From assembly GCA_044449065.1 (NCBI GenBank), contig JBIOHP010000002.1, forward strand, positions 117,462 to 181,461: a stretch of 64,000 nucleotides of DNA, given 5' to 3'. The position numbers and the translations under genes are program-made. This DNA comes from Bacteroidota bacterium. GTDB taxonomy: Bacteria > Bacteroidota > Ignavibacteria > UBA10030 > SZUA-254. The notes beneath the pieces were generated by a model. That model was not told the DNA's origin. It searched no databases and saw only the letters and a list, made by a program, of their open reading frames with translations. Positions 1,641 through 54,928 of this stretch are shown here, piece by piece. Numbering within the stretch: the stretch's first letter is position 1; every line of letters starts with the position of its first letter.

Positions 1641-1722
1641 ATTAGTTCCCTTCTATTTTTTAAAGTTTGTGAATTATGTTTATTAGTTCTTTGAGTATTA
1701 TGATAACCTGCTTATTTTAGTT

Positions 1723-3878: not shown

Positions 3879-4066
3879 GATTGCTCTAGAAAAATATCAT
3901 AAATAGAGCAGTGAAACGCAAACAATCGATCTGCAAAAGCCAATATTATATACTCCGGTTAATTGGTTTCGATGGCATTTCTATCATCAAGTGAGATCCA
4001 AGGCATCATGAGAATGCTATTTATGCTATTAATAGATACGCCCGCTTTATCTAAATTTTTGCCAAT

Positions 4067-5920: not shown

Positions 5921-6023
5921 ATTGATAAAGGACGGTTTTATCGTTACATTTAAAATTGTTAGATTTTGATTTTATCAATATATATATAATGGATAATTCA
6001 GAAACTGAAACAACTATAACGCC

Positions 6024-7559: not shown

Positions 7560-7568
7560 ATAATATTT

Positions 7569-14131: not shown

Positions 14132-14279
14132 GATCGTAGACGTCCGGTTAGATAGTCGTTAAGTGGTGTTCGAGTCTGTACAAAAAGCTACACTCTAGCG
14201 TTAAAAAAGATTTAAAGTTTCGCAATTTATATCGATATGAGGAGATCGCCCGCCCGAACGACGCAGTCGGGCAGGCGAC

Positions 14280-14316
14280 GTCCGCCTCCCGCCAAAAGGG
14301 AATGCGGGAGGCGGAC
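14280..14316 (-). terminator. GC-rich perfect 13-bp stem-loop (GTCCGCCTCCCGC...GCGGGAGGCGGAC) downstream of the 910-aa membrane protein gene; terminator-like, no U-tract on the minus strand
   Basis: Perfect inverted repeat read from the sequence, 55-90 nt after the minus-strand stop at 14369. Confidence 0.4.
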
Positions 14317-14368
14317 TTGCGATGACTTTTTACACAGGTTTGTTCCATGACGAGTTCTTGTAAGTAAC

Positions 14369-17101
14369 TCATTGCAGGGTTAATTTTATTTTGAACGATT
14401 TATCACCCTTTTGGTCAAACCAGCCGACGCCTTCCTGCAACATGCTGAATTTCACCATGTATATCCCTAAGGGCAAAAGCTTTTGATCGGAGCCGACAGG
14501 ATTTAATTTTGATGTGATTTCGATTTCTTCCCCCGGTTCAACAGCATGCGGAAGATCAACCCGCTGTTCAACTACTTCTTTACCGGGATCTTTTTCGGAG
14601 AACCACATAATACCTAACCGCACTGCGCCAATTGGCGATGGCAAGTCGGTAAGGCAGGGCCAAACCTTATTGCCGTTGTTTCGTATTCTTGCGCGATATT
14701 GCAGAGATTTTGCTGTATCCGCCATACTGCCGATATTAATAATATCAATTTGTATTGATGATCGCAGAGCCGGCAGCGCAAGCGGAGCCGCCGTAAGCGG
14801 ATGATAATGATCAAGAAGCGTAATGCCGTTTAAATAAACCCCCAGGGTCCGTGTATCACCGCTATTCGGCATTGTCTTCGCAGGAACAAAACTATCACTT
14901 TTTACCTCGATGAGCAGGTTTTTTGATATTGGGACGCCATCTAAACTTAACACTTTCGCCCAGTTTCCCTGTGCAACTGCCTGATTAAATATATCGACCT
15001 GATTCGCTTTAATATTTAAATTCGATAAGACAGGAGAGTTTTCTCCAAGTTCGATACGCACCGCTCTGGGCAGATGATTTGAATTGATAGGAATATTAAA
15101 AGAAGCATTACCATTTGTCCAACGGGATTGAGCATCCCGCGCGGCCGGTTCATTCAAACCCGATTCTTCGATGCCAAAATATTGCCGACCGCCAATTTTT
15201 ACATTGATAAAATCATCCTTCAATCCGGTTACAGTATAAATATCCACATTTCGTTCATCGAAAATGATACTATCAGGCAAGGGATTAGTCACGGTTTCAA
15301 TAAACACGCGTCGTAGAAAGAAATTATCGACGTTTTTTTCAACAATCCCGTTTAAATGATGGTTTCCCTGATAGACGACATATACCGGATTACTCACAGA
15401 TGCGCTTTCGCGGATATAATTTTCAACAACTGTCCTCCCGGGATCATTATCCAGATTCATGGGAATAACCTTTCTATCAAAGGCGAGGAAAAGCGGGGTT
15501 TCCCATGTCGCCCAGGGACCTGCGTCATCGGTAAAGATCATTTTATCCTTCGGTAAATGTTCAGCCAATGATTGAATCTGTTTATAATATCCCATTTGTT
15601 CGGTCACCATGATCTGGAAGTCGTCGGCGTCAATCATAAAAATGACAATGAAGAGGGCGGCGGCAACCGAAGGTATATGTCGCATCCAGCCCTTTAAAAA
15701 ATGATCGATGAGCCAGGAGAGCCCCAATGCGGCGAAGATGGCAAAACCGGGGATGACCACGGGGATAAATCTCCGTATCAGCCAGAAGTGATCAGGAGCG
15801 ATGGAAGGATTCCAAATAAATACACTCGAAAAACCTGACGCGATCATAAGGATAACAATTATGGTTGTATCCTTTTTCCGTCGGATCACGTCCCTGAATG
15901 AAAAGAGCCATCCAATTGGAGCCGCGAAAATCACTAATGGTGAAAGATACTTTGCAAGATTTACTAACGAATTTTCTCTAAAATCCCGGGTCAGATATCC
16001 ATAAAGATCCCACACCATTGCAAAATTCCCAAAATTCGGACGGATCCAGTATGCGTAAAGAACTAATGCCACAATAATCGCGGAGAGGATCCCAAAAATC
16101 AAGCGGTGTTCAATAAATTTTTTAATGGAAGAATTGATGGCGGGACTTTTAACAAGCAAAAGAATTGCCGAAATTATCATTAAGTAATTTATTGGACGCA
16201 ATGAAGGGAAAAGTGAAATCAGGTATGGTAGGGTCGTGAATACATGATATAATGTTCCCAAAAGGAAAATCGGAAGAAAGGTTTTGTACAGTGCGAGCCA
16301 GAGAGATTCATCTTCCTGTTCACTTACGTTTGATATTATACGATAAATAAAATGGGAGATAAAAACAAACGGAATAATCATAAAACTATCGATACGGACC
16401 CAGATCGATAGACCGAGCAAGATTCCACTCCATGCCGCTAATTGTTTCACTTTAAAACGGAGTGAATAAATAAATAGAAGTAATCCCCCCCATATACAGA
16501 GCTGGGTGAATATTTCTGTCAGAGTAACATGAGTCACCCAAATCTGGCCCGGATTCAATCCGATCACGAATACCGCGGCGAGAGCAAATTGAACAGGCAG
16601 GAACAACCGGCAGAAACCGTACAAAATGCATAGAGATAGGAGACCGACAAAGCCGTTGAACCTGATTAATCCATCAAAATCGAACGTGCAAAATGCCTGC
16701 GCCAGCCACACAGGATAGAGATGCGCAAATTGAATCGTCATGGTCGAACGAGTTTCGTATATTCCCGGGTATTGTTCATGGGAATCGGCAAATATTGAAT
16801 CCTGACTTTCTGTCCAGGGATAAGGGACATCTAACCTTCCGTGGTGTGCGATATAGATTGCGTGATTTGCGTACATACCCGTATCGCGTCCCCCCACAAT
16901 CGAATCAGCGGGATGCCAGAAATAAATAAACCCTGCAACCATGAGGATAACCATAAGAGATACATCCTCCCACGAAAATGGGGGAAAATTCCCTTGCGCT
17001 GATTTGCCGGTCAGAAATTTTGAAATGAAATATCCACCTGCGACTGCCCAGCCAAGAGCTCCAACCATCGCTCCATTATAGAGATGAAAAGCCGCAAGCA
17101 T
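14369..17101 (-). CDS. Large polytopic membrane protein (about 14 TM) with a C-terminal approximately 350-aa extracytoplasmic domain; possible GT-C-fold glycosyltransferase or polymer-modifying enzyme
   Basis: 910 aa. Hydrophobic N-terminal 560 aa, soluble beta-rich C-terminal domain. Embedded in the glycan cluster. Confidence 0.4.
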   Translation of the reverse strand: MLAAFHLYNGAMVGALGWAVAGGYFISKFLTGKSAQGNFPPFSWEDVSLMVILMVAGFIYFWHPADSIVGGRDTGMYANHAIYIAHHGRLDVPYPWTESQDSIFADSHEQYPGIYETRSTMTIQFAHLYPVWLAQAFCTFDFDGLIRFNGFVGLLSLCILYGFCRLFLPVQFALAAVFVIGLNPGQIWVTHVTLTEIFTQLCIWGGLLLFIYSLRFKVKQLAAWSGILLGLSIWVRIDSFMIIPFVFISHFIYRIISNVSEQEDESLWLALYKTFLPIFLLGTLYHVFTTLPYLISLFPSLRPINYLMIISAILLLVKSPAINSSIKKFIEHRLIFGILSAIIVALVLYAYWIRPNFGNFAMVWDLYGYLTRDFRENSLVNLAKYLSPLVIFAAPIGWLFSFRDVIRRKKDTTIIVILMIASGFSSVFIWNPSIAPDHFWLIRRFIPVVIPGFAIFAALGLSWLIDHFLKGWMRHIPSVAAALFIVIFMIDADDFQIMVTEQMGYYKQIQSLAEHLPKDKMIFTDDAGPWATWETPLFLAFDRKVIPMNLDNDPGRTVVENYIRESASVSNPVYVVYQGNHHLNGIVEKNVDNFFLRRVFIETVTNPLPDSIIFDERNVDIYTVTGLKDDFINVKIGGRQYFGIEESGLNEPAARDAQSRWTNGNASFNIPINSNHLPRAVRIELGENSPVLSNLNIKANQVDIFNQAVAQGNWAKVLSLDGVPISKNLLIEVKSDSFVPAKTMPNSGDTRTLGVYLNGITLLDHYHPLTAAPLALPALRSSIQIDIINIGSMADTAKSLQYRARIRNNGNKVWPCLTDLPSPIGAVRLGIMWFSEKDPGKEVVEQRVDLPHAVEPGEEIEITSKLNPVGSDQKLLPLGIYMVKFSMLQEGVGWFDQKGDKSFKIKLTLQ

Positions 17102-17384
17102 TGCAATCGGAACCGACCAACATGCAATACCGATCGTTGTTAAAATCGCAAAATATACAACATTGGATACTTTAAGCGAGATTGATCCCCCTCCTGTATA
17201 TTGAAATAAAATATAGCCGGTACAAGGAAGGGCGAGCCAGATACCGCTGGATAGAACATGAGTTACGATATTAATAGATTACCTCTGGATGCATCTATAG
17301 ATAAATATTTTCTTGATCTATCTTCCCGTTACATGTATATAACTATCTGTAAAGGAATAAATTAAACATACCATGAATAATAAA

Positions 17385-32828: not shown

Positions 32829-32950
32829 ACAGGATGCTGAAAAACCCGAACCGAGTCACCCTGAACTTGTTTCAGGGTCTGAATGTGAACAGATTCCGAA
32901 ACAAGTTCGGAATGACTCACTCCAATTTGATACTTTTTCAGCATCCTGCT
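32829..32950. repeat. Approximately 120-bp palindromic intergenic repeat element, copy 1 (REP/MITE-like), two internal hairpins plus a terminal stem
   Basis: AGGATGCTGAAAAA...GAGTCACCCTGAACTTGTTTCAGGG...TTCCGAAACAAGTTCGGAATGACTC...TTTTTCAGCATCCT. About 85% identical to the copy at 39406-39530. Confidence 0.7.
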
Positions 32951-37418: not shown

Positions 37419-38759
37419 GTGCCGCAACGTTACAACATTTTAATTGTAGATGACGAGGCGTCATTTACCGAAATCCTTCGAGAAGAGCTCCAGGAGGAAG
37501 GTATCTATGAAGTCGATCTCGCGTTCGACGGCGTGGAAGCGATCAATCTCATCCAGAAAAAATTATATGACGTAGTCCTCCTCGATATTAAAATGCCGCG
37601 GGTCAGCGGCATTGAAGTTTTGCAATTCATTCAAGAACATTCTCCCTCTTCCCAGGTTATCATTCTCTCCCAGTTCGCCGATGTAAAGATGGCGGTTGAA
37701 ACCACCAAGTTAGGCGCATACGAGGTGCTGGGGAAACCGTACGATTTCGATCAGGTGGAACAAACAATCCACCGCGCTATCGACCGGAAAAAGCTTGCCA
37801 TCGATAATACACTGATGAAGACGGAGCTTTCCCGGAAAGCCGGCACGTTTGAGATCATCGGGAAAAGCCCGCGTATCCAGCGCGTCATGATCGACGCCGA
37901 AAAAGTTGCCGATAGCGAATCCATCGTGCTTATCACCGGAGCAAGCGGCACCGGTAAAGAACTCATCGCCCATTTAATCCATGATCGGAGTCCCAGACGG
38001 TCGCGTCCGTTCGTGCCCGTAAACTGTTCCTCCATCCCCGATACGCTTTTAGAGAGCGAATTATTCGGTCATGAGAAAGGCGCATTCACCAATGCATATA
38101 CCGCCAAGCCGGGTTTGGTTGAAGTTGCAAACGGCGGCACGCTCTTTCTCGATGAAGTTGGCGATATAAGTCCGGTGATTCAACCGAAGCTGCTGAGGTT
38201 TTTGGAAACGGGAGATTTCAGGCGCGTCGGCGGCACCAACGAATTGAAAGCGAATGTGCGCGTAGTGTCCGCGACCAATAAGAACCTCCAGGAAGAAGCA
38301 AAAGCCGGAAGATTCCGCGATGATCTTCTCTACCGGTTGAATGTTATAACGATTCTCATTCCCACGCTGAACCAGCGCCTTGAGGATATTCCTCTGCTGG
38401 TGGATTTTTTCCTTCAGAAAAAATCCAAGCTCAGTGCGCCAAAACGCGTGAGCGAAGAAGCGATGAAATCCCTCATGTTGTATGAATGGCCCGGGAATAT
38501 ACGGGAGCTGGAACATGTTATCGAACGCGCTATAATTTTATCGACCGGCGATCAGATTGAGATTACCGATCTCCATCTCACAAACAACGGAAGCATCGGG
38601 GCGCCCGCCGATCTTTCACTCGACGAGCTTGAGAAACAGCATATCGAGAAAGTTCTTAAACTCTTCGGCGGAAACCGCAAACAGACATCTGAGGCGCTCG
38701 GTATAAGCCAGAAAACTCTCTACCTGAAAATTAAGGATTATAAGATACAGGTAGATTGA
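37419..38759 (+). CDS. Sigma-54-dependent Fis-family transcriptional activator (NtrC-like: receiver + AAA+ + HTH)
   Basis: Receiver domain, Walker A GASGTGKE, GAFTGA-type motif ESELFGHEKGAFTNA, Walker B LFLDEVG, C-terminal Fis-type HTH (QTSEALGISQKTLYLKIK). Confidence 0.85.
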   Translation: MPQRYNILIVDDEASFTEILREELQEEGIYEVDLAFDGVEAINLIQKKLYDVVLLDIKMPRVSGIEVLQFIQEHSPSSQVIILSQFADVKMAVETTKLGAYEVLGKPYDFDQVEQTIHRAIDRKKLAIDNTLMKTELSRKAGTFEIIGKSPRIQRVMIDAEKVADSESIVLITGASGTGKELIAHLIHDRSPRRSRPFVPVNCSSIPDTLLESELFGHEKGAFTNAYTAKPGLVEVANGGTLFLDEVGDISPVIQPKLLRFLETGDFRRVGGTNELKANVRVVSATNKNLQEEAKAGRFRDDLLYRLNVITILIPTLNQRLEDIPLLVDFFLQKKSKLSAPKRVSEEAMKSLMLYEWPGNIRELEHVIERAIILSTGDQIEITDLHLTNNGSIGAPADLSLDELEKQHIEKVLKLFGGNRKQTSEALGISQKTLYLKIKDYKIQVD

Positions 38760-38857
38760 TACTCCATTAACCGATTTATCATTTTTTCAACATAGGTCGA
38801 ATTCCTATTGATATTTTCCAGTTTGTGCATTATATTAAAACGCTCTACTGATATAAC

Positions 38858-39397
38858 ATGCAGATTAAAACCGGAAAAAACATAAAAATTCTACTGTCGC
38901 TGTTTTTCGTTCTCATCCTTATCACGGGAGAGACGGCATTTATTTCCTTCACAACGATTTTCCAATCGACAGCGCATCAGAAAATCGCTGAATCTGTACG
39001 CGAAGGATGCGAGTCCTCCTCCATTGTTCAACTCTGGTATGACCCCCGTGAACCGGAAAATCAAATGATCGTAAGAAACGAAGATCAAACCGTGCTCTGG
39101 GAGGGAGTCGCATATTCAATTGTTTCCATCATTCCGACCTCGGAAGACATTCTTTATCTATGCATGACGGATAACGGCGAAACTTATGTTGAATCCACCG
39201 GCACGCGTTTTTCACCGCAGCACCCCGATCCGATAAAAAACGGATTGAAGGGAAAAGTACTTCTCGGACAATTTATCCAACTCGATGAGATTGTGAGCAT
39301 TCACTGCCCCTATAATGGCGAGCTAACCGCCCCCGCTCACCCGCGGCTGCAAAGCTTCTACCCCGAAATCTCTCCACCCCCTCCCCGTTTAAGTTAA
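38858..39397 (+). CDS. Hypothetical secreted protein
   Basis: 179 aa with an N-terminal signal/TM segment KILLSLFFVLILITG. No motif recognised. Confidence 0.4.
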   Translation: MQIKTGKNIKILLSLFFVLILITGETAFISFTTIFQSTAHQKIAESVREGCESSSIVQLWYDPREPENQMIVRNEDQTVLWEGVAYSIVSIIPTSEDILYLCMTDNGETYVESTGTRFSPQHPDPIKNGLKGKVLLGQFIQLDEIVSIHCPYNGELTAPAHPRLQSFYPEISPPPPRLS

Positions 39398-39405
39398 TAA
39401 ACACG

Positions 39406-39530
39406 GCAGGGTGTTGAAAAACCCTAACTCGAGTCACCCTGAACTTGTTTCAGGGTCTGAACGCTTACAGATTCCGAAACAAGTTCGGATTGACTCATTC
39501 CAATTCGAGACTATTTCAACACCCTGCTAG
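39406..39530. repeat. Palindromic intergenic repeat element, copy 2 (same family as 32829-32950)
   Basis: AGGGTGTTGAAAAACCC...GAGTCACCCTGAACTTGTTTCAGGGTCTGAA...AGATTCCGAAACAAGTTCGGATTGACTCA...TTTCAACACCCT. Terminal stems differ from copy 1 by compensatory changes. Confidence 0.7.
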
Positions 39531-39696
39531 AAGGATTTACGCCAAAAGGATAGCGTTTATCCTTTCTGGCAGTGTTACACAGTCTGTGTGAAAGGTCGTC
39601 ATTGCGAGTCCCGTCATTCTTTTTGACGGGACGTCGCAATCTCCTCACATCGATGTAAATTGCTGAGAATTGATGTTGTCCAAAAAATATTAATCG

Positions 39697-39790
39697 CTTC
39701 TCTGAGTCATCCCGAACTTGTTTCGGGATCCAAAAATTGGTGACTATAGATGCTGAAACAAGTTCAGCATGACTCACCGAACTCAGGGAA
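39697..39790. repeat. Palindromic repeat element, copy 3 (core only, diverged)
   Basis: CTGAGTCATCCCGAACTTGTTTCGGGAT...GATGCTGAAACAAGTTCAGCATGACTCAC. Both internal hairpins are retained with compensatory substitutions relative to copies 1 and 2. Confidence 0.55.
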
Positions 39791-39826
39791 GTATTTTTGT
39801 TAACAAAATTTTTACGGAGAATAAAC

Positions 39827-40693
39827 ATGAAACCTTTAATAATTATTACATTTTTAATTTTATGTTCAATCCCTGCACTCGCGCAGCAGCGGGATACATC
39901 GCAGGTGGTGCTGCCACCAATAACGGTTACGGCGTACAAAGAGAACCAACCCATCGGTGCATATAAACAACCGGAATGGACCACCCGCCGTCGTTTCCCT
40001 ACCACGAGAGTGTATATCCAGACGCAACCCGGTGAAGCCGAGTTTGAGCAGTGGGTTGAAGTGCGTGAGGAAAAAGCAAGCGCCGGCGGCGCCAAGAAAG
40101 CGCGGATTTCACAAGAACTGGAATTCGGGCTTGGAGCGCATACGCAGCTTGATATCTATATGAACAGCATCAGGTACTGGGATGGACAGGCGTCATCCTT
40201 CAATTCACGGGGATGGTCGGTTGAAATGCGCTGGGCGCTTGCCGATTGGGGCTCGCTTCCGGGCAACCCGACTCTCTACTTCGAATACTCAACGTTCGAC
40301 GCAGTCAATGGTGACGAAGACCAAGGGTACGATAAAATCGAACCGAAACTCCTTCTTGGAGGAGAGTTGGGAAACCTCTGGCATTGGGGTTTGAACATCG
40401 TAACGGAACGCGGGTTAGCGCCCGCCGATTATCGTGATGAAGAATATGTTGTCACCGGCGCTGCATCCTATATCGTCGCGGATGAATTATTTTCCATCGG
40501 ACCGGCGTTTCAATATAAATATGAGATAGGCCGAGCGACAGGCACACCCAACTGGCGCACCCATTATTTACTTGGACCCACAATGCAATACCGTCCTGTA
40601 AAACGCGCCTTCCTCGATGTTGAACCGCTCTTCGGCGTCACCGATCAATCGCGCTTGCTCGATATGACAATTGTTTTTGGGTGGACGTTATAA
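39827..40693 (+). CDS. Hypothetical secreted / outer-membrane protein
   Basis: Signal peptide MKPLIIITFLILCSIPALAQQ. Aromatic-rich, with alternating hydrophobic C-terminal strands consistent with a beta-barrel. The start is placed at 39827 rather than the ORF-track start at 39797. Confidence 0.45.
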   Translation: MKPLIIITFLILCSIPALAQQRDTSQVVLPPITVTAYKENQPIGAYKQPEWTTRRRFPTTRVYIQTQPGEAEFEQWVEVREEKASAGGAKKARISQELEFGLGAHTQLDIYMNSIRYWDGQASSFNSRGWSVEMRWALADWGSLPGNPTLYFEYSTFDAVNGDEDQGYDKIEPKLLLGGELGNLWHWGLNIVTERGLAPADYRDEEYVVTGAASYIVADELFSIGPAFQYKYEIGRATGTPNWRTHYLLGPTMQYRPVKRAFLDVEPLFGVTDQSRLLDMTIVFGWTL

Positions 40694-41134
40694 ATGGAAG
40701 AATGAGAGGTCGCTCCGAAAATAGATAAGTCTTTTGGGAGCAACCTCTTGGAGTTTAATGGTGAGGGAACGTTGATATTCAATCCTGCCTGTTTTTTAAA
40801 CCTATCGAATTCGATGGGTTTAAAAAGAGGTTTTTGGATTTTGCTATTTCTTTGAATATACCAAGATTTAATCTCTCACAAATTCCTTAAAATCGACGTA
40901 TATTCAACAATATTTTGATTTTCATTAAATTTTACTTGACAAAATCTTGATACTTTCGTAAATTCTTAAGTATTTTTGCAGGGTATAATCGATACATGCA
41001 CTTTGTATCGATGGGGTTATACATTCATTTAAATAATTTCACTTAATGGCGAGTACGCTTTTTTAGGATAGGGATTATTTCATTTCGCCATAAAAAATAT
41101 TTTAAAATTCTTTCAAAAAAATTAAAGCAGACAT

Positions 41135-41302
41135 ATGAGCACATGTAAGGAATGTAAAGGTAAAGGTTCCGCACAATGTCCAAAATGTCATGGGACTGGG
41201 CGTCTTGGAGGTGGAATATTAAGTTCATCATATCAATGCAACAATTGTAATGGTTCCGGCAAGGTAAAATGCGGCGTTTGCAATGGTAAAGGTAACATTT
41301 GA
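41135..41302 (+). CDS. Mini zinc-ribbon protein with four CxxCxGxG repeats (DnaJ cysteine-rich-domain-like), 55 aa; missed by the ORF track (under 60 aa)
   Basis: MSTCKECKGKGSAQCPKCHGTGRLGGGILSSSYQCNNCNGSGKVKCGVCNGKGNI read directly. Four evenly spaced CxxCxGxG motifs. First gene of the AT-rich island. Confidence 0.5.
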   Translation: MSTCKECKGKGSAQCPKCHGTGRLGGGILSSSYQCNNCNGSGKVKCGVCNGKGNI

Positions 41303-41762
41303 AGTCAATGAAATAGTTAGGAAAATATTTTTGAAAATCGAAGAAATAATTAAATATTTAAAATCTCGTTATACGGCTAATTTTCGTCAGGATTCACCTA
41401 CTTATTGGAGAGTAGAGGTAATGACAACGGAAGGGCGATCACAAGTTGTACATTTGATATACAAGAAAATAATTTTGGCGGGCCAAGATTTATCGAGGCT
41501 GATTGCTGAGAGTCCCATAGGACCTTTATACAAGCACTTCAATTATGAAACCATTTTGAGGAAAAACGCGGAATTAGATGTAGGGGCAATATGCATTGAA
41601 GATCTTAAAAATGAAGAAAATTTATTTGTTTCCTACTTGACCCTCCGCTCAACTCATCTTGTGCCAACTGCTGATTATGAGGAGATACAAGAATTGATAG
41701 AGAAAACAGCTTTTGTCGCTGATCAATTAGAGAAAGAGATTTATGCAAGAGACTATCACTGA
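41283..41762 (+). CDS. Hypothetical soluble protein (island gene 2)
   Basis: 159 aa ORF. The start overlaps the last 20 nt of the zinc-ribbon ORF in another frame. No motif recognised. Start uncertain. Confidence 0.4.
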   Translation: MVKVTFEVNEIVRKIFLKIEEIIKYLKSRYTANFRQDSPTYWRVEVMTTEGRSQVVHLIYKKIILAGQDLSRLIAESPIGPLYKHFNYETILRKNAELDVGAICIEDLKNEENLFVSYLTLRSTHLVPTADYEEIQELIEKTAFVADQLEKEIYARDYH

Positions 41763-41784
41763 ATTCTTATAAAAGGAGAATATC

Positions 41785-42801
41785 ATGTTTCGCTATCTTT
41801 ATTTTTTCATTCGATTTCGTCAATATTTTAAAAATGACAAAGGATTATCCGAATTTGCAGACAGATGTCTGAACTGGTTAATCGAAAAATCTGCCATAAA
41901 AGCTGGAATTTATATAGAAAAAAACGAAGAACTCAAAGATGAGAAAAAAAATCTAATTTTACGTAGTGAAGATATAAATAAAAAGGCAATGCTCGAAAAT
42001 GATGATTTTTTCACTGTGAGAAAGAAATATCGTACACAAACTTTTATTATTGGAGTAATAATAATCGCAGAAATGTTTTTAAATTACATTTCAACACTTA
42101 TTTTCATCAACGGGGAAGATTTGATCTTCACCTTCATACGATGGGGAATTGCAATTGTATTAACTGGTGGCGGAATTATTGTATCGGAGAAATTGATCGA
42201 ATCAGTCTTGCCGATAACAAAAAAGGAAAAAAAAGATATTCCAAACAGATCTACCCCAGTTATTATATTGTGGTCAATTTTACTCATAGGGGTTGAAATA
42301 GCCATAATGGGAGTTTCAGAAACTAGAGCAACCGATATTGAGGGTGGCCATACCGGTGGTGTGTTGTATTATGGGTTCATTATACTTTCAATGGTATTGC
42401 CTCTTATTGCAGGTGCGGCTCGATGGGATATTATGCATTATTTAGATGCGTATAAAAATACACTCTTACATCGAAAAATTCAGGAGAGATTGCATAAAAT
42501 AGAGACGATACTACGAAGAAATGAAGAACATAAGTTGCAATATTTTAAAATTCAAAGTGTAGTATTCTGGGACATTTTCAGCGAATTTAAGACATTTAAA
42601 GAAAACTATGACAAGAAGAAAGGACTGAAAACCGAAGATCTATCTTCTCATTTTGCCTGTAACAATGATACATTTCAACTCGAAGCCGATAAGAGATACG
42701 AGAAGGATCCTCGCACACATTCCGCAAGTCATATTCAAAAATTGACAATATCTGATAAATCTGTTGGAGATAAAATTGGACAATCAGCCTTTCAGGAATG
42801 A
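41785..42801 (+). CDS. Hypothetical membrane protein (about 4 TM central block, soluble N- and C-terminal parts) (island gene 3)
   Basis: 338 aa. Hydrophobic segments FIIGVIIIAEMFLNYISTLIFI, IAIVLTGGGIIVS, VIILWSILLIGVEIAIMGV, VLYYGFIILSMVLPLIAGA. RBS GGAG 8 nt upstream. The stop overlaps the next start (ATGA). Confidence 0.5.
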   Translation: MFRYLYFFIRFRQYFKNDKGLSEFADRCLNWLIEKSAIKAGIYIEKNEELKDEKKNLILRSEDINKKAMLENDDFFTVRKKYRTQTFIIGVIIIAEMFLNYISTLIFINGEDLIFTFIRWGIAIVLTGGGIIVSEKLIESVLPITKKEKKDIPNRSTPVIILWSILLIGVEIAIMGVSETRATDIEGGHTGGVLYYGFIILSMVLPLIAGAARWDIMHYLDAYKNTLLHRKIQERLHKIETILRRNEEHKLQYFKIQSVVFWDIFSEFKTFKENYDKKKGLKTEDLSSHFACNNDTFQLEADKRYEKDPRTHSASHIQKLTISDKSVGDKIGQSAFQE

Positions 42802-43664
42802 GGTTTGAGAGATTTATGAGCAAGATAATAATTTGTTACTTAGGTGTTTTGCTGATAGGCTTTTCCATCCTAAATATTGGATGCCAAACCAAGATTGATA
42901 GACGTTTGAATTGTATATGTTTGATTGATTACTCTGGCAGCCTGAGCGATGAAACGCTTCAGAGGTATATACACATTATTAGTTCTGATGTTTTGTCAAA
43001 TTTGAACATCAAGGACCGTTTAATAGTTTTGCCAATCGATGAAGGAGCAAAGACAGAAGCTGTTAAACTAGTCTATGAGGATTTCTCTGAAAAAAAATAT
43101 TCTAAAACATCGGATGGATTCACACACGCTAGCGATAGCACAATGAAGCGATTTCATGATTATCTTGAGCAATTAAAACCTCAACTTATGATCCAATTGG
43201 ATTCACAAAAAGTCGTTCGCAGTAAATTCACATACTTTACTGATATAATGGCAGCATTGGAACAGTCAGAAGGGTTATTGGAAACAAATGAAGAAGATAA
43301 TTTTACAACGATTTTCAACAGATTTATTACCGGGCGCAATAAATTGGTTTCCGAAAATGTAATCATCCTTTTTTCAGATATGATTCATGAATCAAGTGAG
43401 TATAATTTTAATAAACCCAACGGCTGCGATTCCAAAGAGGCAAGCTCAATTATTAACAATCTCGTCCAAAATAAAAGAATGCCAAACTTGAAGGGAAGTA
43501 AGATATTTGTTGATGGACGAACTGGACATTCGAATCGTATGGTCGAAAACATACGATCATTTTGGAGCAAGTACTTTAAAGAATCTCATGCAGACCTCAT
43601 TGCTTATGATTTCGATATTGGCAATCAAATTGTTTCATTTTTAAATAATCAACGAGTTAAATAA
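42798..43664 (+). CDS. Secreted or lipoprotein with a von Willebrand factor A-like domain (island gene 4)
   Basis: Signal peptide ending ...LIGFSILNIGC. MIDAS-like LIDYSGSLSD (DxSGS). Later VIILFSDMIHE resembles the VWA iiLlTDG strand. An alternative start is at the second ATG, 42816. Confidence 0.5.
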   Translation: MRFERFMSKIIICYLGVLLIGFSILNIGCQTKIDRRLNCICLIDYSGSLSDETLQRYIHIISSDVLSNLNIKDRLIVLPIDEGAKTEAVKLVYEDFSEKKYSKTSDGFTHASDSTMKRFHDYLEQLKPQLMIQLDSQKVVRSKFTYFTDIMAALEQSEGLLETNEEDNFTTIFNRFITGRNKLVSENVIILFSDMIHESSEYNFNKPNGCDSKEASSIINNLVQNKRMPNLKGSKIFVDGRTGHSNRMVENIRSFWSKYFKESHADLIAYDFDIGNQIVSFLNNQRVK

Positions 43665-44022
43665 GTTTTACGTAAAAGTGTGGAAAATAGATTGAACGTT
43701 TTGATTTTTTGTAAAAATAGATTATTCCGAAATAGCCCATTTAATCATAACTTGAGCTCTCTACTATATGAAATCATACTTCAAATGCAATCTATTTTTT
43801 TACCCCATTAGTAACAGCATTGCAAAAATAGAAAAGGGGAGTGGATCGACATCAACCAAATTCATTAAGAATTATTGATCGATGCATTGCAACAATAGTT
43901 TAATATACCGAAAGTAAGCAATCCCGTCACATTCAAGGAAATATAGAGGCCGACTCCATCTCGTTTTCAAGAACTTCGGGCGATACAATCTCTTTTTAAT
44001 CGCCTTTCCTCTTGCACTTTCT

Positions 44023-44745
44023 GTGGGTATCCTCAAAATATTCTTTCATTACCAGGGATGGGAGCCATTTGTTTTTTCACTTTCTCCATTTTTTACGAGC
44101 GTTTTAACTGGTATTGTTTTTTTGATAGGATTCATTCTTGCGGGGGTAATGACGGATTATAAAGAATCTGAAAAAATACCGGGCGAGATCTTGACTAGTC
44201 TCCAGACTATCTGGCTCGAGACATCGTTAATACACAAGAAAAATCCGCCAGCGGCGATGTCCTTGCGCAAGAAAGTTGTGGAATTTACAGCAATCCTGCA
44301 AACTGATTTTCTCGTGCGACGGGAAGAACGAACAGCCTTCCAGTTGCTCGACTCATTCTCCGAAGAATTTGAACTATTATACGATACTCTTCCACCCCCC
44401 TTTCTAGTCCGGTTAAAAAATGAACAAGCTGCTCTAAGGAAACTTCTTGTGCGAATCAAGGTCATACGCGATACGCACTTCTCTCACAACGTATATTTCG
44501 TAATCAAAAGTACGGCTGCTGGATTCGTTACCGGATTGCTTCTGTTAAAAATGGAACCGTTCGCGGAAGGTATATTTTTTCTCTGTCTATATGTTTATAT
44601 GTTAGTTTCCGTTATTATATTAATTAGGGATATGGATGATCCGTTTGAATATTCGGATAACATTGAAAAAATTGATGAAATTGATTTTAAGATACTGTTT
44701 GACTATGCACAGAATTTAGGTAACAAAATAGCGTTCGATGACTGA
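44023..44745 (+). CDS. Hypothetical membrane protein (2 N-terminal + 2 C-terminal TM helices around a soluble helical domain) (island gene 5)
   Basis: 240 aa. GTG start (no in-frame ATG/TTG upstream back to the stop at 43915). No motif recognised. Confidence 0.4.
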   Translation: MGILKIFFHYQGWEPFVFSLSPFFTSVLTGIVFLIGFILAGVMTDYKESEKIPGEILTSLQTIWLETSLIHKKNPPAAMSLRKKVVEFTAILQTDFLVRREERTAFQLLDSFSEEFELLYDTLPPPFLVRLKNEQAALRKLLVRIKVIRDTHFSHNVYFVIKSTAAGFVTGLLLLKMEPFAEGIFFLCLYVYMLVSVIILIRDMDDPFEYSDNIEKIDEIDFKILFDYAQNLGNKIAFDD

Positions 44746-44822
44746 CCGGTAATTCACTAATGTATAGCAAACAATGATGTGATTTCTTCATTCCTCCTCG
44801 ATAAGGAATTTTAATCTAAGTA

Positions 44823-45536
44823 ATGCGAGAAATAATAGATGGACTCAAAGAAGGATTTCAATTTACAGTAACTTTCCACCCACACCTTGAGTTAGATAAA
44901 GTGCTTCTCGGTACTTCTGGATTATCGAATTTTCTAATTCTGATGACATTAGGCGGTTTGATAGCGGCTATTTATTTTTCAGTTGAACAATCGAAAATTA
45001 TTGAAAGCGTTCCATTCGGAAAGCCGGGCTTTGTGACTGCACTTGCATGTCTTGCGTTAGCGTGGTCCGGTTTAGCCTCTATCGCTTTGACTTTTTTTTA
45101 CATCATAGGTTCACTCACTGGTTGTTTAATAGGAGTCCGCAATGGCACGCTGCTCCGCAGGAATATCTTCTTTGGGGTTTCGATGCTCGCTGGTATTTTT
45201 ATAGGAGGAATCCTCATCGTTTTAGCACCAATAAATTTAGGAAAAACGGTCCAGCTTATCATACTTTGTTGGCTTGCGTGGGATATGGTACAAGAAGGGC
45301 TTCGAACAATTAATATGGAACGTTTTTATCATCTCTATATATTCTTGATGATAGGAGGAGCCATTTCGCTGGTTTTTTTTGACCCAAAAATTTATTGCCT
45401 ACTGATCGTTAAGGCATCAGAGACAACTTCGATGCGAATTGTTTATACCGATGGCTTCAAGAACCTGATGATTGCTTTTTCCTATACTCCAATTTTAGGT
45501 TGGGTTATCGGATTTTGGAACGAAAAACCATATTGA
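44823..45536 (+). CDS. Hypothetical polytopic membrane protein (about 6 TM) (island gene 6)
   Basis: 237 aa, strongly hydrophobic throughout. Confidence 0.4.
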   Translation: MREIIDGLKEGFQFTVTFHPHLELDKVLLGTSGLSNFLILMTLGGLIAAIYFSVEQSKIIESVPFGKPGFVTALACLALAWSGLASIALTFFYIIGSLTGCLIGVRNGTLLRRNIFFGVSMLAGIFIGGILIVLAPINLGKTVQLIILCWLAWDMVQEGLRTINMERFYHLYIFLMIGGAISLVFFDPKIYCLLIVKASETTSMRIVYTDGFKNLMIAFSYTPILGWVIGFWNEKPY

Positions 45537-45714
45537 GTACATTTTTTCATTCTTTTTTTAAACAAATTTGTTCGGAAATTAGATGGTAACGATAATTATT
45601 TCAAAATTTTTTATCCTTGACAATCTGTACTTTTTCCCAAGGGAAAAACCTGCCTGCCCAAATTTGTTTGACTTTCCCCCTAAAATTTCGTAATTTTTGA
45701 TACTTTTTAACATC

Positions 45715-45752
45715 AAACGCCCTGAAAACAACTAATGACAGGGCGTTTTTTC
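45715..45752 (+). terminator. Rho-independent terminator (9-bp stem AACGCCCTG/CAGGGCGTT followed by TTTTTT)
   Basis: Perfect stem with a 15-nt loop and a T6 tract, read directly. Lies at the right edge of the AT-rich island. Confidence 0.6.
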
Positions 45753-45823
45753 TATTAAAGAATTTTGCTATCGGTCAATGGAAACGTTCCGATGACTGTA
45801 CTCTACCTCCCCTCGCTCCGCGT

Positions 45824-45847
45824 CTCCCCTCCTCAATCGAGGAGGGG
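45824..45847 (+). repeat. Perfect 10-bp GC-rich hairpin TCCCCTCCTC-aatc-GAGGAGGGGA (member of a recurring CTCCC/GGGAG hairpin motif)
   Basis: Read directly. A similar hairpin (ATCCCCTCC-n6-GGAGGGGAT) occurs at 47138-47161. Confidence 0.5.
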
Positions 45848-45945
45848 AAACCAGCAGAGAGGTGTGGTCGGAATCAAAAGAGAGCGTTTCATAAAGACCA
45901 TAATATTCATAGTTAACCGTTTAACATTATTGGAAGACCTCCCGG

Positions 45946-47115
45946 ATGACGAAATTTCAAGGCGTCGATTATTACAGTCTCGATGACAATCTGAGCGAAG
46001 ATGAAATTTTAGTTCGGAACACCGTTCGCGAATTTGTCGACGACAATGTCCTGCCGGTCATTGAAAAGCAGTATCGCGCCGGCGCCTTTCCCATGAACCT
46101 GATCCCCACAATGGGCGAGCTTGGGATGTTCGGCTCCACCCTGCCCGCGAAGTACGGCTGCGCCGAAATGAACAACGTCGCCTACGGCCTGGTGATGCAG
46201 GAGCTGGAGCGCGGCGATAGCGGCGTGCGCAGTTTCGCCTCGGTGCAAAGCGCGCTCGTGATGTATCCCATTTTCACCTTCGGATCGGAACAGCAGAAAG
46301 ATTACTGGCTGCCGAAACTCGCCACGGGCGAAAAAATCGGCTGCTTCGGATTGACCGAACCCGATTACGGCTCTAACCCCGGCGGCATGATCACGCGAGC
46401 CGAAGAAAAAAGCGACGGCTACCTCCTCAACGGCGCGAAGATGTGGATCACCAACGGCACACTTGCGGATGTCGCGGTTGTCTGGGCAAAACTCAACGGC
46501 GTCGTGCACGGCTTCCTCGTAGAAAAAGGCACCAAAGGATTTTTAGCTCCCGAAATGACAGGCAAACACTCGCTCCGCGCTTCGGTGACATCGGAATTGA
46601 TTTTCCAGGATTGCCTCATTCCCAAATCAAACATTTTCCCCAAGACAGAAGGATTGAAAGCGCCGCTCATGTGCCTGAACCAGGCGCGGTACGGTATCGC
46701 ATGGGGAGTAATCGGTTCGGCGATGGCATGTTACGACTCTGCATTGAACTATGCCAAGTCGCGCATACAATTTGGGAAACCGATAGCGGCATTCCAGATC
46801 ACGCAGGAAAAACTCGTTCAGATGATATCCGAAATAACGAAAGCGCAGCTCCTTTGCCTGCAACTTGGGAGATTGAAAGATAAAGGGAAACTCCGGTTCC
46901 AGCAGGTATCGATGGCGAAACGGAACAACGTTCACCAGGCGCTGGAGATCGCGCGCGTGGCGCGGGAAATTTTAGGGGCGAACGGCATCCTCGACGAGTA
47001 TCCCGTCATGCGCCACATGGCAAACCTCGAATCGGTAAAGACGTACGAGGGCACGCACGAGATGCACACGTTAATCATCGGCGAAGACATCACCGGTATC
47101 CCGGCGTTTATGTAA
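45946..47115 (+). CDS. gcdH: Glutaryl-CoA dehydrogenase
   Basis: Acyl-CoA dehydrogenase fold with near-collinear similarity to GcdH ([19 protein letters not shown]...I.GE.ITGI.AF). Confidence 0.8.
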
Positions 47116-48720: not shown

Positions 48721-48887
48721 TTGACCTCACCCTAACAAACATCAAGGGTAAGGGATGCAGTATTTTCTCTTTGACCTCACCCTAAGAAACATCAAGGTTC
48801 AGGGAACTGATACTTACTTCCTCTCCCGGTGGGAGAGGGAAATTATAATATGATCTTATAGGAAAAACCTTACCGGGGTGAGGTCAA
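48721..48887. repeat. MITE-like element: 12-bp terminal inverted repeats TTGACCTCACCC / GGGTGAGGTCAA enclosing two 35-bp direct repeats and a CCTCTCCC-ggt-GGGAGAGG hairpin
   Basis: DR1 48721-48755 TTGACCTCACCCTAACAAACATCAAGGGTAAGGGA. DR2 48771-48805 TTGACCTCACCCTAAGAAACATCAAGGTTCAGGGA. Inverted terminal copy CCGGGGTGAGGTCAA at 48873-48887. Confidence 0.55.
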
Positions 48888-51372: not shown

Positions 51373-52652
51373 AAATTTTAGTTATCGGCTCCGGAGCCCG
51401 CGAACACGCGCTCCTTTGGAAATTGTCGCAGAATTCAAAACACCCCGAATTGTTCTGCGCGCCGGGAAATGCCGGAACCGCGCAATTAGCAAAAAATATC
51501 CCGGTGAAGACAACCGCGTTACCGGACCTGTTGTCATTCGCGAAAATTGAAAAAATCGATCTCACTGTCGTCGGTCCTGAGCAACCCCTCATGGACGGGA
51601 TTGTGGATCTTTTTGAGGAAAACGGATTAAACATATTCGGTCCCCGGAAAGCTGCCGCGGAGATCGAAGGAAGTAAGGTCTTTGCGAAACATTTCATGCA
51701 AAAGTACAAAATTCCCTCCGCTTCCTTCCGCTCGTTCGACCTAACGGAACAAAATAATGCGATAGATTATATTAATGCACTCTCCCCTCCCATCGTTATT
51801 AAAGCGGACGGATTAGCGGCGGGAAAAGGCGTATCGATTTGTGAAACACGCGGCGAAGCAGTTCAAACAATCGATGCGATGATGGGGAAAAAAATTTTCG
51901 GAGATGCCGGCACGCGGATCGTTATCGAAGAATTTCTCGAAGGATTTGAAACATCGGTTCTCGTACTCACCGATGGCGGGAATTTTGTTACCCTTGTCCC
52001 TTCGCAGGATCACAAACGGATTCTCGATGGAGATAAAGGAAAAAACACCGGCGGAATGGGCGTGTATGCGCCGGTGCCGATGGTTTCGTTTGAAATGCTT
52101 GAGGAAATCAAACGGCACATCATCAAACCGACGCTCGAAGGTATGGCAAAGGAAGGAAGAACGTATAAGGGCTGCCTCTATGCCGGTTTGATGATCACGC
52201 AGCAGGGTCCCAAAGTTATTGAATTCAACTGCCGCTTCGGCGACCCTGAAACGGAAGTTGTCCTGCCCCTCCTTGATGACGACCTCGTCGATCTAATGAT
52301 GGATATATCGGCGGGTACATTATCAAAAACGGAAGCACGGTTGAAACAACTCTCCGCGGTATCCGTGATTATCGCATCGGGGGGTTATCCCGATGCATAT
52401 GAAACCGGAAAGAAAATATTAGGATTGGATACAATTGCTGCAATTGACGATATTATAGTGTTTCACGCCGGCACAAAAACGGAAAACGGAGCAGTACTAA
52501 CCTCCGGCGGAAGAGTCCTCGCTGTTACGGCTCTTGGTCCCAAAGATAATTTTGAAGAAACCATTCGCAAAGCATACAGCGCGGTAAAAAAGATCACCTT
52601 CGATGGCGCGTATTACCGGAGCGACATCGGGAAAAAGGGACTGTTGCGGTAA
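51369..52652 (+). CDS. purD: Phosphoribosylamine--glycine ligase
   Basis: MKILVIGSGAREHAL N-terminus and ATP-grasp motifs. 4-bp overlap with the upstream gene. Confidence 0.9.
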   Translation: MKILVIGSGAREHALLWKLSQNSKHPELFCAPGNAGTAQLAKNIPVKTTALPDLLSFAKIEKIDLTVVGPEQPLMDGIVDLFEENGLNIFGPRKAAAEIEGSKVFAKHFMQKYKIPSASFRSFDLTEQNNAIDYINALSPPIVIKADGLAAGKGVSICETRGEAVQTIDAMMGKKIFGDAGTRIVIEEFLEGFETSVLVLTDGGNFVTLVPSQDHKRILDGDKGKNTGGMGVYAPVPMVSFEMLEEIKRHIIKPTLEGMAKEGRTYKGCLYAGLMITQQGPKVIEFNCRFGDPETEVVLPLLDDDLVDLMMDISAGTLSKTEARLKQLSAVSVIIASGGYPDAYETGKKILGLDTIAAIDDIIVFHAGTKTENGAVLTSGGRVLAVTALGPKDNFEETIRKAYSAVKKITFDGAYYRSDIGKKGLLR

Positions 52653-52680
52653 ACAACTCACAATAAGGATTATTATTTTA

Positions 52681-54024
52681 TTGTTCCAGTATAAACATAT
52701 AGAACAATCGCTCTCAGTTATTCGCGAACAACTGAGTTTATTCGATGTGCAGACTAAAAAAGCACATGTTCCGTCTTATCAACTTGAATTTAAAGATTGG
52801 GATTTTGCTTCAGCGGATACGAAAATTGAAACTCATGGGTTTCATCCCTATCCCGCCATGATGATCCCGCAGATTGCGAGATTATTAATTCAGATGCATG
52901 GTAAAAAGGGACAACCATTACTGGATCCGTTTTGTGGCTCCGGCACAGCCCTTGTCGAAGCACGGATCGCCGGGTTGAATTCCTACGGGATAGATATTAA
53001 TCCCCTCGCACTTCTTTTATCAAAAGTCAAAACAACTCCACTTGATATACAAATATTAAAAAAATATTCCATTCGATTATGCGATGATTACCTAAAGACG
53101 ACCATAAAACTTGCCGATAAAAAAGACTCTGAAATAATCCCGAAGTTTTTCAATATAGATTATTGGTTTCGCCCTAAAATTAGTCGTCAACTCTTCGTGT
53201 TAAAATCAGTCATCGACAAAATTCCTGAAATTGATTATCGCGGGTTCTTTTTAATTGCTTTTTCACAAACAGTCAGAGAATCGTCATATACTCGCAACGG
53301 CGAGTTTAAACTTTTCAGGATGCCCGCGGAACAAATGGAGAAATTCATGCCAAATGTTCCAGAATTATTCTTCAGTATTGTTCAAAAAAACTTGCCCATG
53401 ATGGCAGAGTTTGCACGAGCTGCAAAAAACAACGTTTTCGTAAATATTCTTGATGAAGATTCCAGAAAAACTACTGCGATACCCACAAAAACGGTTGATC
53501 TGATCGTAACCTCTCCTCCCTATGGAGACTCGCGCACAACGGTTGCCTACGGGCAATATTCTCGTCTCTCGCTTCAATGGTTAGGTTTACCATGGGAAAA
53601 AGTAAAAAATATTGATACTATTTCACTTGGAGGGCGCAAATATTCGGAATTTTCCGGTTTTAAAAAGTATCCCCATCTCATGGATATAGTAAAGAAAATT
53701 GAGATTCAGGATTCCAAACGCGTCCAGGATGTTGCGAGTTTCTTTTATGATCTCGAATTATGCTTTAGTGAATTCAAACGAGTGTGCAAGAAAAATGCGA
53801 TTCTATGTTTTGTTGTCGGAAACCGTACAGTGAAAGGGGTGAAAATTCCAACGGATGCTATTATTACGGAATTAGGCAATAATGTGGGGATGAAGCACAT
53901 CAAAACTTATACTCGAAATATTCCAAACAAACGAATGCCTTCAAAAAATAGCCCAACCAATATTGAAGGTCAATTAGGCGAGACCATGACAAAAGAATAT
54001 ATTGTCGTGTTGAAAAATAACTGA
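52681..54024 (+). CDS. SAM-dependent amino-methyltransferase, probably a DNA N6-adenine/N4-cytosine methyltransferase (motif I before motif IV with about 200 aa between: alpha-like order)
   Basis: Motif I LLDPFCGSGTALVEA and motif IV DLIVTSPPYGD. The ORF is open from 52603, inside purD. TTG at 52681 (AAGGA 11 nt upstream) is proposed as the start; the first in-frame ATG is about 85 codons further in. Confidence 0.6.
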   Translation: MFQYKHIEQSLSVIREQLSLFDVQTKKAHVPSYQLEFKDWDFASADTKIETHGFHPYPAMMIPQIARLLIQMHGKKGQPLLDPFCGSGTALVEARIAGLNSYGIDINPLALLLSKVKTTPLDIQILKKYSIRLCDDYLKTTIKLADKKDSEIIPKFFNIDYWFRPKISRQLFVLKSVIDKIPEIDYRGFFLIAFSQTVRESSYTRNGEFKLFRMPAEQMEKFMPNVPELFFSIVQKNLPMMAEFARAAKNNVFVNILDEDSRKTTAIPTKTVDLIVTSPPYGDSRTTVAYGQYSRLSLQWLGLPWEKVKNIDTISLGGRKYSEFSGFKKYPHLMDIVKKIEIQDSKRVQDVASFFYDLELCFSEFKRVCKKNAILCFVVGNRTVKGVKIPTDAIITELGNNVGMKHIKTYTRNIPNKRMPSKNSPTNIEGQLGETMTKEYIVVLKNN

Positions 54025-54034
54025 AGAGGATTCC

Positions 54035-54928
54035 TTGAAGATAATTCCAATACGTCCAGAATTGAAAAACGAGTTACAAGGGAATAAGGGCTTAATTCAA
54101 AAAGTCAAGAAGAAATATCTCCCCACGGGAGAAAAACTTGCAGGGGTAGCATGGAAAAATGTTTCATTTAGACACCAGAAATTAACCCGTGAAAACGTAA
54201 TAAAAAATTTCAATGCGTATTTATCCGAACTTCTTGATTAAGAATATGAATTATATCTCGAATATGAGGAGGATTGCATTTCCAAGGGAGTCATTGAACT
54301 TGCATTCGGACCAGACAATAAGCGGGACTACCCGGCAGTTCATTCTTTAATACAAAAGACGTTAGGCATTTTCGGGGATAAAACTATTTCAAATGACAAG
54401 AAGTTAATTAATTTAATTTCAATTCTCCGTCCATTTTATAAGATAGTTGAACAAAGTTTTGCGCAAGGTCGGATGTCTCGCGCAGGTGGAAGCTCGCAAT
54501 ATCATCTTAAAACTCTTCTTGAACGCGCGGGTTATAGCGGTGAATTTGAAATGGAACAGATCCTTAATGGTACAGTCGATTTTTTGTTTCCGAGTAAAGC
54601 TGCGTGGGATCAGGATAAGAGAAAATGTATCATTGTATCGATGAAACGCACGCTGCGTGAGCGTTATAAACAAATATTCGAGGAATTAAATATTACCGGC
54701 GGCATCCCTGTGTATATTATTATAACAGAAACTTATGAAGAAGCCGAGAAAGATATTACCGAGTCTAAGGTTGACAAATTGAACGAACACAACTTTTATC
54801 TTGTTATCCGAGACGAAATCAAGAATCGGAGGTTCTCCAAAAAGGTAAATGTAATTAGTTTTTCCACGTTTATTCAAGAAGAACTCCCGAATAAACGATA
54901 TGCATGGAAGTCGTTGCTAAAAAAATAG
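54035..54928 (+). pseudogene. Putative restriction-endonuclease partner of the upstream methyltransferase, disrupted by a single in-frame TAA (54239-54241); the ORF track shows it as separate 68-aa and 151-aa ORFs
   Basis: 54035..54241 and 54473..54928 are in the same frame. I translated the 231-bp gap codon by codon and found no further stop, giving a continuous 297-codon frame with one TAA. The ATG at 54035 is 10 nt after the MTase stop. Confidence 0.5.

Follow-up and report, generated by a model that had tools for sequence, protein, structure and literature searches.

The 64,000-nt stretch of Bacteroidota DNA analysed here (hereafter the window; assembly GCA_044449065.1, contig JBIOHP010000002.1, positions 117,462 to 181,461 of the forward strand) carries at window positions 40694-45760 a low-GC block of six open reading frames (ORFs), A to F, whose coordinates are also given as window positions. 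The meaningful part of this block is A-B-C-D (41135-43664), a rare, mobile cassette of two genes that is present here in a version with four. The cassette consists of C, a membrane protein with four predicted transmembrane (TM) helices, and D, a predicted lipoprotein with a periplasmic von Willebrand factor A (VWA) domain. In all contexts examined the two genes are adjacent and coupled in translation, and the genomic sites between which the cassette moves are unrelated. The pair is read here as a mobile membrane module associated with conflict or defence, its VWA lipoprotein docking on the 4-TM partner or gating it; about even weight is given to this reading. The four genes are the following.

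41135-41302, + strand: A, 55 amino acids, cytoplasmic zinc ribbon with four CxxCxGxG motifs, a complete DnaJ-CR-like unit
41283-41762, + strand: B, 159 amino acids, soluble, no fold assigned
41785-42801, + strand: C, 338 amino acids, core membrane protein with 4 predicted TM helices
42798-43664, + strand: D, 288 amino acids, core predicted lipoprotein with a periplasmic VWA domain; the NCBI start lies later (42816)

The first-pass annotation of the window had proposed that all six genes form one membrane-associated system, and the co-occurrence test does not bear this out. By way of the D and C families, 54 loci were fetched from genome and metagenome collections (tblastn, clustering, HMM scans). 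After collapse of duplicates they represent 27 distinct D-family contexts, mostly metagenome-assembled genomes (MAGs) of Ignavibacteriota and Bacteroidota. C, or a protein of identical architecture, stands directly upstream of D in 27/27 contexts. The distance from the C stop to the D start is -4 nt in 14 of 32 locus entries, the window copy having the two genes overlap at ATGA, and is 20 nt or less in nearly all entries. Two proteins, from two lineages, carry both parts in a single chain, P0145 (C at E 9e-41, D at E 7e-37) and P0204 (C at E 3e-19, D at E 4e-28). B is found in 6 contexts, A in 3, and E and F never accompany the pair outside the window. Because only C and D always occur together, the system is defined as C-D with A and B as optional additions.

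Two further loci show distant forms of the pair. In a Terriglobia MAG (L015, 3785-4801) one ORF joins the apparent last TM helix and cytoplasmic helix of a C-like protein to a D-like VWA domain behind them; this ORF could be a truncated C-D fusion or a pseudogene remnant. In an Eubacteriales MAG (L014, 8686-14154) a protein of C-like architecture, a distant D-like lipoprotein (HMM E 1e-15) and a 1091-aa HerA-like ATPase are encoded in this order, and the pair may thus extend to monoderm bacteria with a different partner.

Scans of A-F against Pfam, NCBIfam, PADLOC (PADLOC-DB v2) and PHROGs gave no significant match, in agreement with the first-pass annotation, which had recognised no housekeeping family among the six genes. 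It had also described C as a 4-TM protein and D as a secreted protein or lipoprotein of the VWA type with a DxSGS motif, and both descriptions are corroborated by the models and predictions below; its description of A as a miniature DnaJ-CR-like zinc ribbon holds in part. As no model for the pair exists in these four libraries, annotation and defence-finding pipelines miss it.

The AlphaFold2 model of D (mean predicted local distance difference test, pLDDT, 94) has the Rossmann-like alpha/beta fold of VWA domains with the canonical strand order. Its motif of the metal ion-dependent adhesion site (MIDAS) type is D44-x-S46-G-S48 (DYSGS), nearly invariant at D44, S46, G47 and S48 with at least 90% conservation; S193-D194, directly after strand beta4 (182-192), is invariant. 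The site is of MIDAS type by this motif, and metal binding is putative. VWA sequence models (Pfam VWA, VWA_2 and VWA_3) do not match D even at E up to 1, and a PDB search with the D family profile found no VWA chain by sequence. In an hhalign comparison of the D profile with a manually entered integrin alphaM I-domain sequence, only the DxSGS region aligned (LIDYSGS/LIDGSGS), and no MIDAS threonine was located. Since no VWA sequence model matches, D is a member of the VWA group at the level of fold only. The N-terminus has a hydrophobic helix (10-28) followed by a lipobox, G28-C29, with C29 at least 90% conserved; relatives have FIGC, LSAC or LASC at this position. By signal helix and lipobox D is a bacterial lipoprotein, with lipidation predicted.

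The four TM helices of C, an inner-membrane protein, span about residues 88-106, 114-132, 159-177 and 193-211. They are flanked by a long N-terminal and a long C-terminal helix, both cytoplasmic. The structure model (pLDDT 82) is all helical, and its last TM helix extends as an 88-residue helix into the cytoplasm. Lys+Arg counts in the successive loops are 19/0/6/1/23, a positive-inside distribution, which places both termini in the cytoplasm and the loops FINGEDL and SETRATDIEGGHTGG in the periplasm. The TM helices and the second periplasmic loop are the most conserved portions. This loop, SE(A/T)RA(R/T)DIEGG (178-192; SETRATDIEGG in the window copy), is on the side of the membrane where D is located. 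Near-invariant or invariant residues are E96 (TM1), E171 (TM3), R181, D184 and E186, and the acidic residue of TM1 is retained even in the most distant C partners. Homologues of C number 38, and a C profile run against 1.84 billion representative proteins collected 113 members. A fold search with the C model returned generic helical bundles only.

Some members of the C family are parts of larger proteins. P0195 and P0205 (1050 aa) have an N-terminal Ser/Thr kinase (Pkinase), about 400 residues of coiled coil and a C-type module at the C-terminus, and P0129 has a C module followed by two C-terminal FtsK_gamma DNA-binding domains. The cytoplasmic ends of C are attachment sites for other functions, as these kinase and FtsK-gamma fusions show.

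A and B are optional accessories of the pair. A has all four CxxCxGxG motifs of a DnaJ-type zinc ribbon, and its match to Pfam PF00684 (E 2.2e-6, 28.3 bits) is under the cut-off of 32.7 bits, so that the motif part of the first description stands and the family assignment stays below threshold. It accompanies C-D in 3/27 contexts and its position varies: it precedes B in the window, stands immediately before C in L034 and follows D in L006. The homologues in L006 and L034 are 71-75% identical. B lies always immediately upstream of C, in 6/27 contexts (the window, L027, L033, L037, L046 and L048); its five homologues are 54-58% identical to it, and a profile of five B sequences gave no PDB or Pfam match.

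The genomic settings of the cassette are diverse. Flanks are shared only among the closely related L004, L007 and L008 and otherwise differ from context to context, and the genes flanking the window copy occur in no fetched locus. GC content of C-D is 7-10 points under that of the host in the window, L006, L013 and L027. Type III CRISPR-Cas loci host or adjoin the pair in 4/27 contexts from four lineages. In Zhuqueibacterota (L012) C and D are inside a III-D operon with the order Csx10, Csx7, Csx19, RAMP, TIR-FGE, Csx20, C, D, TM-CARF, Card1, Cas6, reverse transcriptase (RT)-primase, Cas1, Cas2. In Ignavibacteriaceae (L013) a Csx3 fusion, a C-like gene and D stand beside III-D RAMPs, Cas10 and Card1, with an integrase and ArdC near. 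A Bacteroidota locus (L016) has Csx20 and, further on, a C-like gene, a gene for a D-like lipoprotein, Cas2 and RT-Cas1. In Bacteroidales (L044), where C and D are 46% and 49% identical to the window proteins, the pair begins 215 nt past the 25-repeat array of a III-B locus. In a typical genome the genes found no more than 10 kb from type III cas genes make up well under 1%. On this informal comparison, four CRISPR-linked contexts of 27 are far above chance.

Elsewhere the company includes a relaxase next to D (L011) and integrases (next to B-C-D in L046, and that of L013), and further genes that mark mobility or defence: an OLD-family nuclease (L048), HNH, PIN/MazE (toxin-antitoxin) and methylase genes (L045), and an HNH gene (L027). 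The first-pass annotation had likened the block to horizontally acquired anti-phage, toxin-immunity or envelope-stress modules. This holds for the foreign-looking composition, the nearness of C-D to defence and mobile genes, and the four type III loci; it does not extend to all six genes. The III-D operon of L012 has two fusions of its own, a TIR and FGE-sulfatase-domain protein (7246-8253) and, upstream of Cas1-Cas2, a 982-aa fusion of reverse transcriptase and CRISPR-associated primase-polymerase (14166-17114).

The remaining features of the window block are given below.

40694-41134, + strand: leader of the A-D unit, intergenic, 30% GC
40792-40827: terminator-like hairpin for the upstream gene, inside the A-D leader
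40936-40964: sigma-70-like -35/-10, inside the A-D leader, a consensus match only
43665-44022: AT-rich gap of 358 nt between the A-D unit and E-F
44023-44745, + strand: E, 240 amino acids, 3-TM protein, adjacent to and outside the module
44823-45536, + strand: F, 237 amino acids, polytopic membrane protein, orphan in the library scans, adjacent to and outside the module
45715-45752, + strand: intrinsic-terminator-like hairpin at the end of the E-F unit, 10-bp GC-rich stem, 14-nt loop and T-run

The layout of the block is largely as first described. A windowed GC check confirms an AT-rich block of about 5 kb: GC is 35.1% within 40694-45760 vs 45.2% across the remaining window, and the lowest 1-kb windows of the 64 kb fall inside it (0.333-0.346; window mean 0.444, standard deviation 0.043). 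The block thereby has the deviant composition used as a criterion of genomic islands. GC at third codon positions is 0.27-0.39 in the six ORFs vs 0.50-0.69 in flanking genes. All six ORFs are on the + strand and closely packed, with overlaps of 20 nt for A/B and 4 nt for C/D where they had been placed, and none of them is an integrase or transposase. Within the block GC is uneven, with a mean of 34.3% for A-D and 38.9% for E-F, a step of 4.6 points. The terminator proposed for the right edge is also there: the hairpin at about 45715-45752, read from the sequence and found as an inverted repeat as well, has the arms AAACGCCCTG and CAGGGCGTTT followed by TTTT. A consensus terminator scan missed it because of the 14-nt loop. 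The next gene is glutaryl-CoA dehydrogenase (gcdH; E 3.8e-132).

E and F are unrelated passenger membrane genes, a separate unit that shares the low-GC patch with A-D. They are spaced by 77 nt and are absent from all 26 other C-D contexts. E may be a distant bestrophin-like protein with a DMDDPFEY motif. Its match to PF14023 (bestrophin-like; E 0.044, 13.8 bits, cut-off 32) covers the last two TM helices only, and its homologues P0120 and P0121 have no Pfam match. At least four homologues (P0120-P0123; 32-36% identity) share the motif D-x-D-D-P-F-E-Y, and they sit in unrelated neighbourhoods without F or C-D.

The palindromic repeats that had been placed at the left border of the island lie elsewhere. 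They form inverted pairs at 32853-32918, 39431-39496 and 39704-39775, all intergenic, and resemble repetitive extragenic palindromic (REP) elements. The unit is 27 nt (GAGTCAYCCYGAACTTGTTTCRGGRTC), each unit is itself a hairpin, and 6 copies are present in the window vs 0 expected by chance. The pairs at 39431-39496 and 39704-39775 are upstream of the left flanking gene (39797-40693), off the island border, and a third pair is at 32853-32918; the palindromes are therefore a dispersed REP-like element, and their role as island borders is rejected. The left flanking gene, which had first been taken for plain GC-rich flank, encodes 298 amino acids with a signal-peptide-like N-terminus, has no Pfam, NCBIfam or PDB match and is itself an orphan. 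Among the ORFs and repeats of 38000-46500 there is no border mark of mobility (integrase, relaxase, tRNA or flanking direct repeats), no dedicated tRNA scan having been made. No Rfam family matches 38500-46500, and no tandem repeats were found.

Other repeats and composition patches occur in the window. A GC-rich 30-nt inverted repeat (45805-45868) directly upstream of gcdH may be an intergenic repeat element or a regulatory hairpin. A 35-nt direct repeat (48721-48805; 2 copies 50 nt apart), just after an IMP-dehydrogenase-like gene, may likewise be a repeat element or regulatory hairpin. Two other patches of lower GC (37-40%), at 1501-6000 and 52501-54500, are milder than the block studied here.

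Membrane-bound ancillary effectors of type III CRISPR-Cas include Cam1, Csx23 and CorA (PMC10808066, PMC11229360), and uncharacterised families of membrane proteins have already been noted in type III loci (bioRxiv 10.1101/270033). Like Cam1, Csx23 and CorA, C-D consists of membrane proteins whose genes lie within type III loci, in the company of ring nuclease and CARF genes. The L012 pair is flanked on one side by Csx20, for which cA4 ring nuclease activity has been confirmed by experiment (PMC12409355), and on the other by a TM-CARF gene of Cam1-like type. Unlike these effectors, C-D has no CARF, SAVED or known nucleotide-binding domain, is a two-component system with a periplasmic lipoprotein as one component, and in most members, the window copy included, is not next to cas genes. 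A survey of type III effectors (PMC11229360) mentions neither vWA nor lipoprotein.

VWA domains recur near CRISPR and conflict genes. Candidate CRISPR associations reported by Altae-Tran et al. 2023 include vWA+RDD, vWA+kinase, vWA+FHA+PP2C and tubulin+vWA (PMC10910872), and vWA-MoxR-VMAP are conflict systems (PMC7159879). Likeness to C-D is in the transmembrane or kinase partners, and P0195 and P0205, in which a Ser/Thr kinase is joined to the C module, may be compared with the vWA+kinase candidates. In these systems the VWA domain is mostly cytoplasmic and part of NTPase or kinase systems, whereas D is a secreted lipoprotein. MoxR, VMAP, PP2C, FHA and tubulin genes were not seen among the C-D neighbours scanned. 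A pair of 4-TM protein and VWA lipoprotein is among none of the vWA associations described in PMC10910872, and a search for C and D peptide motifs in the accessible part of the supplementary sequences of this FLSHclust survey was negative.

Other VWA proteins offer partial parallels. The calcium-channel alpha2delta subunit and integrin I-domains dock by MIDAS on an acidic residue of the partner; this serves as an analogy only, since D is 10-19% identical to them and C matches generic helical bundles. Bat proteins match Pfam VWA models and are TM-anchored in an operon with MoxR, DUF58 and TPR genes. Unlike BatA/BatB of the Bacteroides aerotolerance operon (PDB 3ibs; 14% identity), D is a lipoprotein without a VWA model match and pairs with another kind of protein. 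A Bat operon reading of C-D is rejected; MoxR, DUF58 and TPR genes are not beside the pair in the neighbours scanned. Putative force transducers made of a TolQ-like protein and a TM-tethered vWA protein (PMC12204202) are likewise encoded by two genes, for a polytopic inner-membrane protein and a periplasmic VWA protein. Unlike in these pairs, C is not a detectable MotA/ExbB/TolQ homologue and D has no trans-pore helix aspartate. Within the literature and model libraries searched, the C-D family is undescribed.

The module may be pictured as follows. D would be anchored at the periplasmic face of the membrane, and its metal site would bind an acidic residue of the conserved C loop (D184/E186), a contact analogous to partner binding by integrin I-domains and the calcium-channel alpha2delta subunit. 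Docking of this kind fits the topology of the single-chain proteins, because the signal helix of D would become a fifth TM helix and leave the VWA domain outside. An envelope perturbation (phage protein, wall damage) or a cytoplasmic signal on the helices of C, the latter being the presumed trigger in CRISPR loci, could alter the C-D contact. C would then conduct ions or relay a signal, D acting as sensor or lock on C, and the outcome could be growth arrest or abortive infection. An activity of C itself (ion conduction) is favoured over the role of passive anchor, since the TM helices are strongly conserved and have buried glutamates. B and A would act in the cytoplasm of particular lineages, as regulators or as assembly factors. 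The C-D contact, the pore activity and the effect on phages are all putative.

A functional link of C-D with type III CRISPR signalling is a tentative addition to this picture, well short of probable. The same low expectation applies to the fuller proposal of a type III ancillary module of a new kind, which also stands alone. Such a module would combine a periplasm-facing VWA lipoprotein with a 4-TM protein free of CARF and SAVED and would link envelope events and cytoplasmic immunity in either direction, A and B being cytoplasmic adaptors of the stand-alone form.

A number of observations count against a defence role, and against a CRISPR-linked one in particular. The best PADLOC-DB v2 hits of A-F have E 0.03-0.14 and none is significant. 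In most loci GC of the pair is host-like, so C-D can be a long-term resident. No CRISPR link is found in 23/27 contexts, and neither a cas gene nor a CRISPR array accompanies the window copy anywhere in the 64 kb. Divergence is greatest in three of the four CRISPR-linked pairs (D identity 23-33%); similarity of the C partner is marginal in L013 (hhalign E 0.002) and in L016 is by architecture only. No CARF, SAVED or other recognisable nucleotide sensor was detected in A-D with Pfam, NCBIfam and PADLOC, a novel domain being possible, and library scans detected no enzymatic effector in C or D. A cross-search with the cas proteins of the CRISPR-linked loci gave no cas homologue in the other loci or in the window.

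A rival reading is an envelope or ion-homeostasis module without conflict role, in which C is a cation channel or transporter regulated by the metal-binding periplasmic VWA lipoprotein, and the nearness to CRISPR and mobile genes comes from the gathering of accessory genes in variable regions. This possibility is serious, if doubtful. The buried conserved glutamates in TM1 and TM3 of C, the high conservation of its TM regions, the metal-site motif of D and the host-like GC of the pair in most genomes are all in its favour, and the window copy is beside two more membrane proteins, one possibly bestrophin-like. However, the family is rare and patchy (the 113 representatives mentioned above), synteny is conserved only in the closely related L004, L007 and L008, and in L012 and L016 the pair is embedded in type III operons, with Csx20 on one side and further cas genes on the other. 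As said, the rest of the Bat operon set (MoxR, DUF58, TPR) is not beside the pair in the neighbours scanned. A function for the element and not the host, as addiction, surface-exclusion or entry-exclusion module of integrative or conjugative elements, is unlikely. Pairs of a lipoprotein and an inner-membrane protein are the classical form of conjugative exclusion systems, and the integrase by B-C-D (L046), the relaxase by D (L011), the integrase with ArdC (L013) and the foreign composition in four loci agree with such a function. However, searches of 72,556 plasmids, 50,697 phages and the IMG/VR contigs did not find the family, the window block shows no integrase, relaxase or flanking direct repeats among its ORFs and repeats, and embedding in CRISPR operons would be left unexplained.

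Two further readings are very improbable. A single membrane-associated system of all six genes A-F would agree with their common direction, close packing and low GC, and with the single strong terminator after F. It is opposed by the absence of E and F from the 26 other contexts, by the occurrence of E homologues without F or C-D, and by the 358-nt gap and the GC step between D and E. Slightest of all is the chance that C-D works as a motor driven by protons, its VWA protein transducing the force as proposed for the TolQ-like and TM-tethered vWA pairs (PMC12204202). In both arrangements a gene for a polytopic inner-membrane protein with long cytoplasmic helices comes before one for a periplasmic VWA protein anchored in the membrane, and C has conserved intramembrane acidic residues, but both defining features fail (a MotA_ExbB-family subunit, and a partner helix with a conserved aspartate), and the motor is rejected as a candidate.

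For the mobile, conflict- or defence-associated module preferred here, the interest lies in its design. Few membrane proteins of type III systems are understood (Cam1, Csx23, CorA), and all of them sense a cytoplasmic nucleotide. If the reading is true, a pair that recurs, has its VWA lipoprotein outside the cytoplasm and lacks a recognisable nucleotide sensor would be a different design, and C-D could reveal how the envelope and immune signalling are connected. With two to four genes the cassette is easy to clone and test. If the pair is instead an ion-homeostasis module, a fold and a partner would still have been assigned to an orphan family of the poorly studied Ignavibacteriota.

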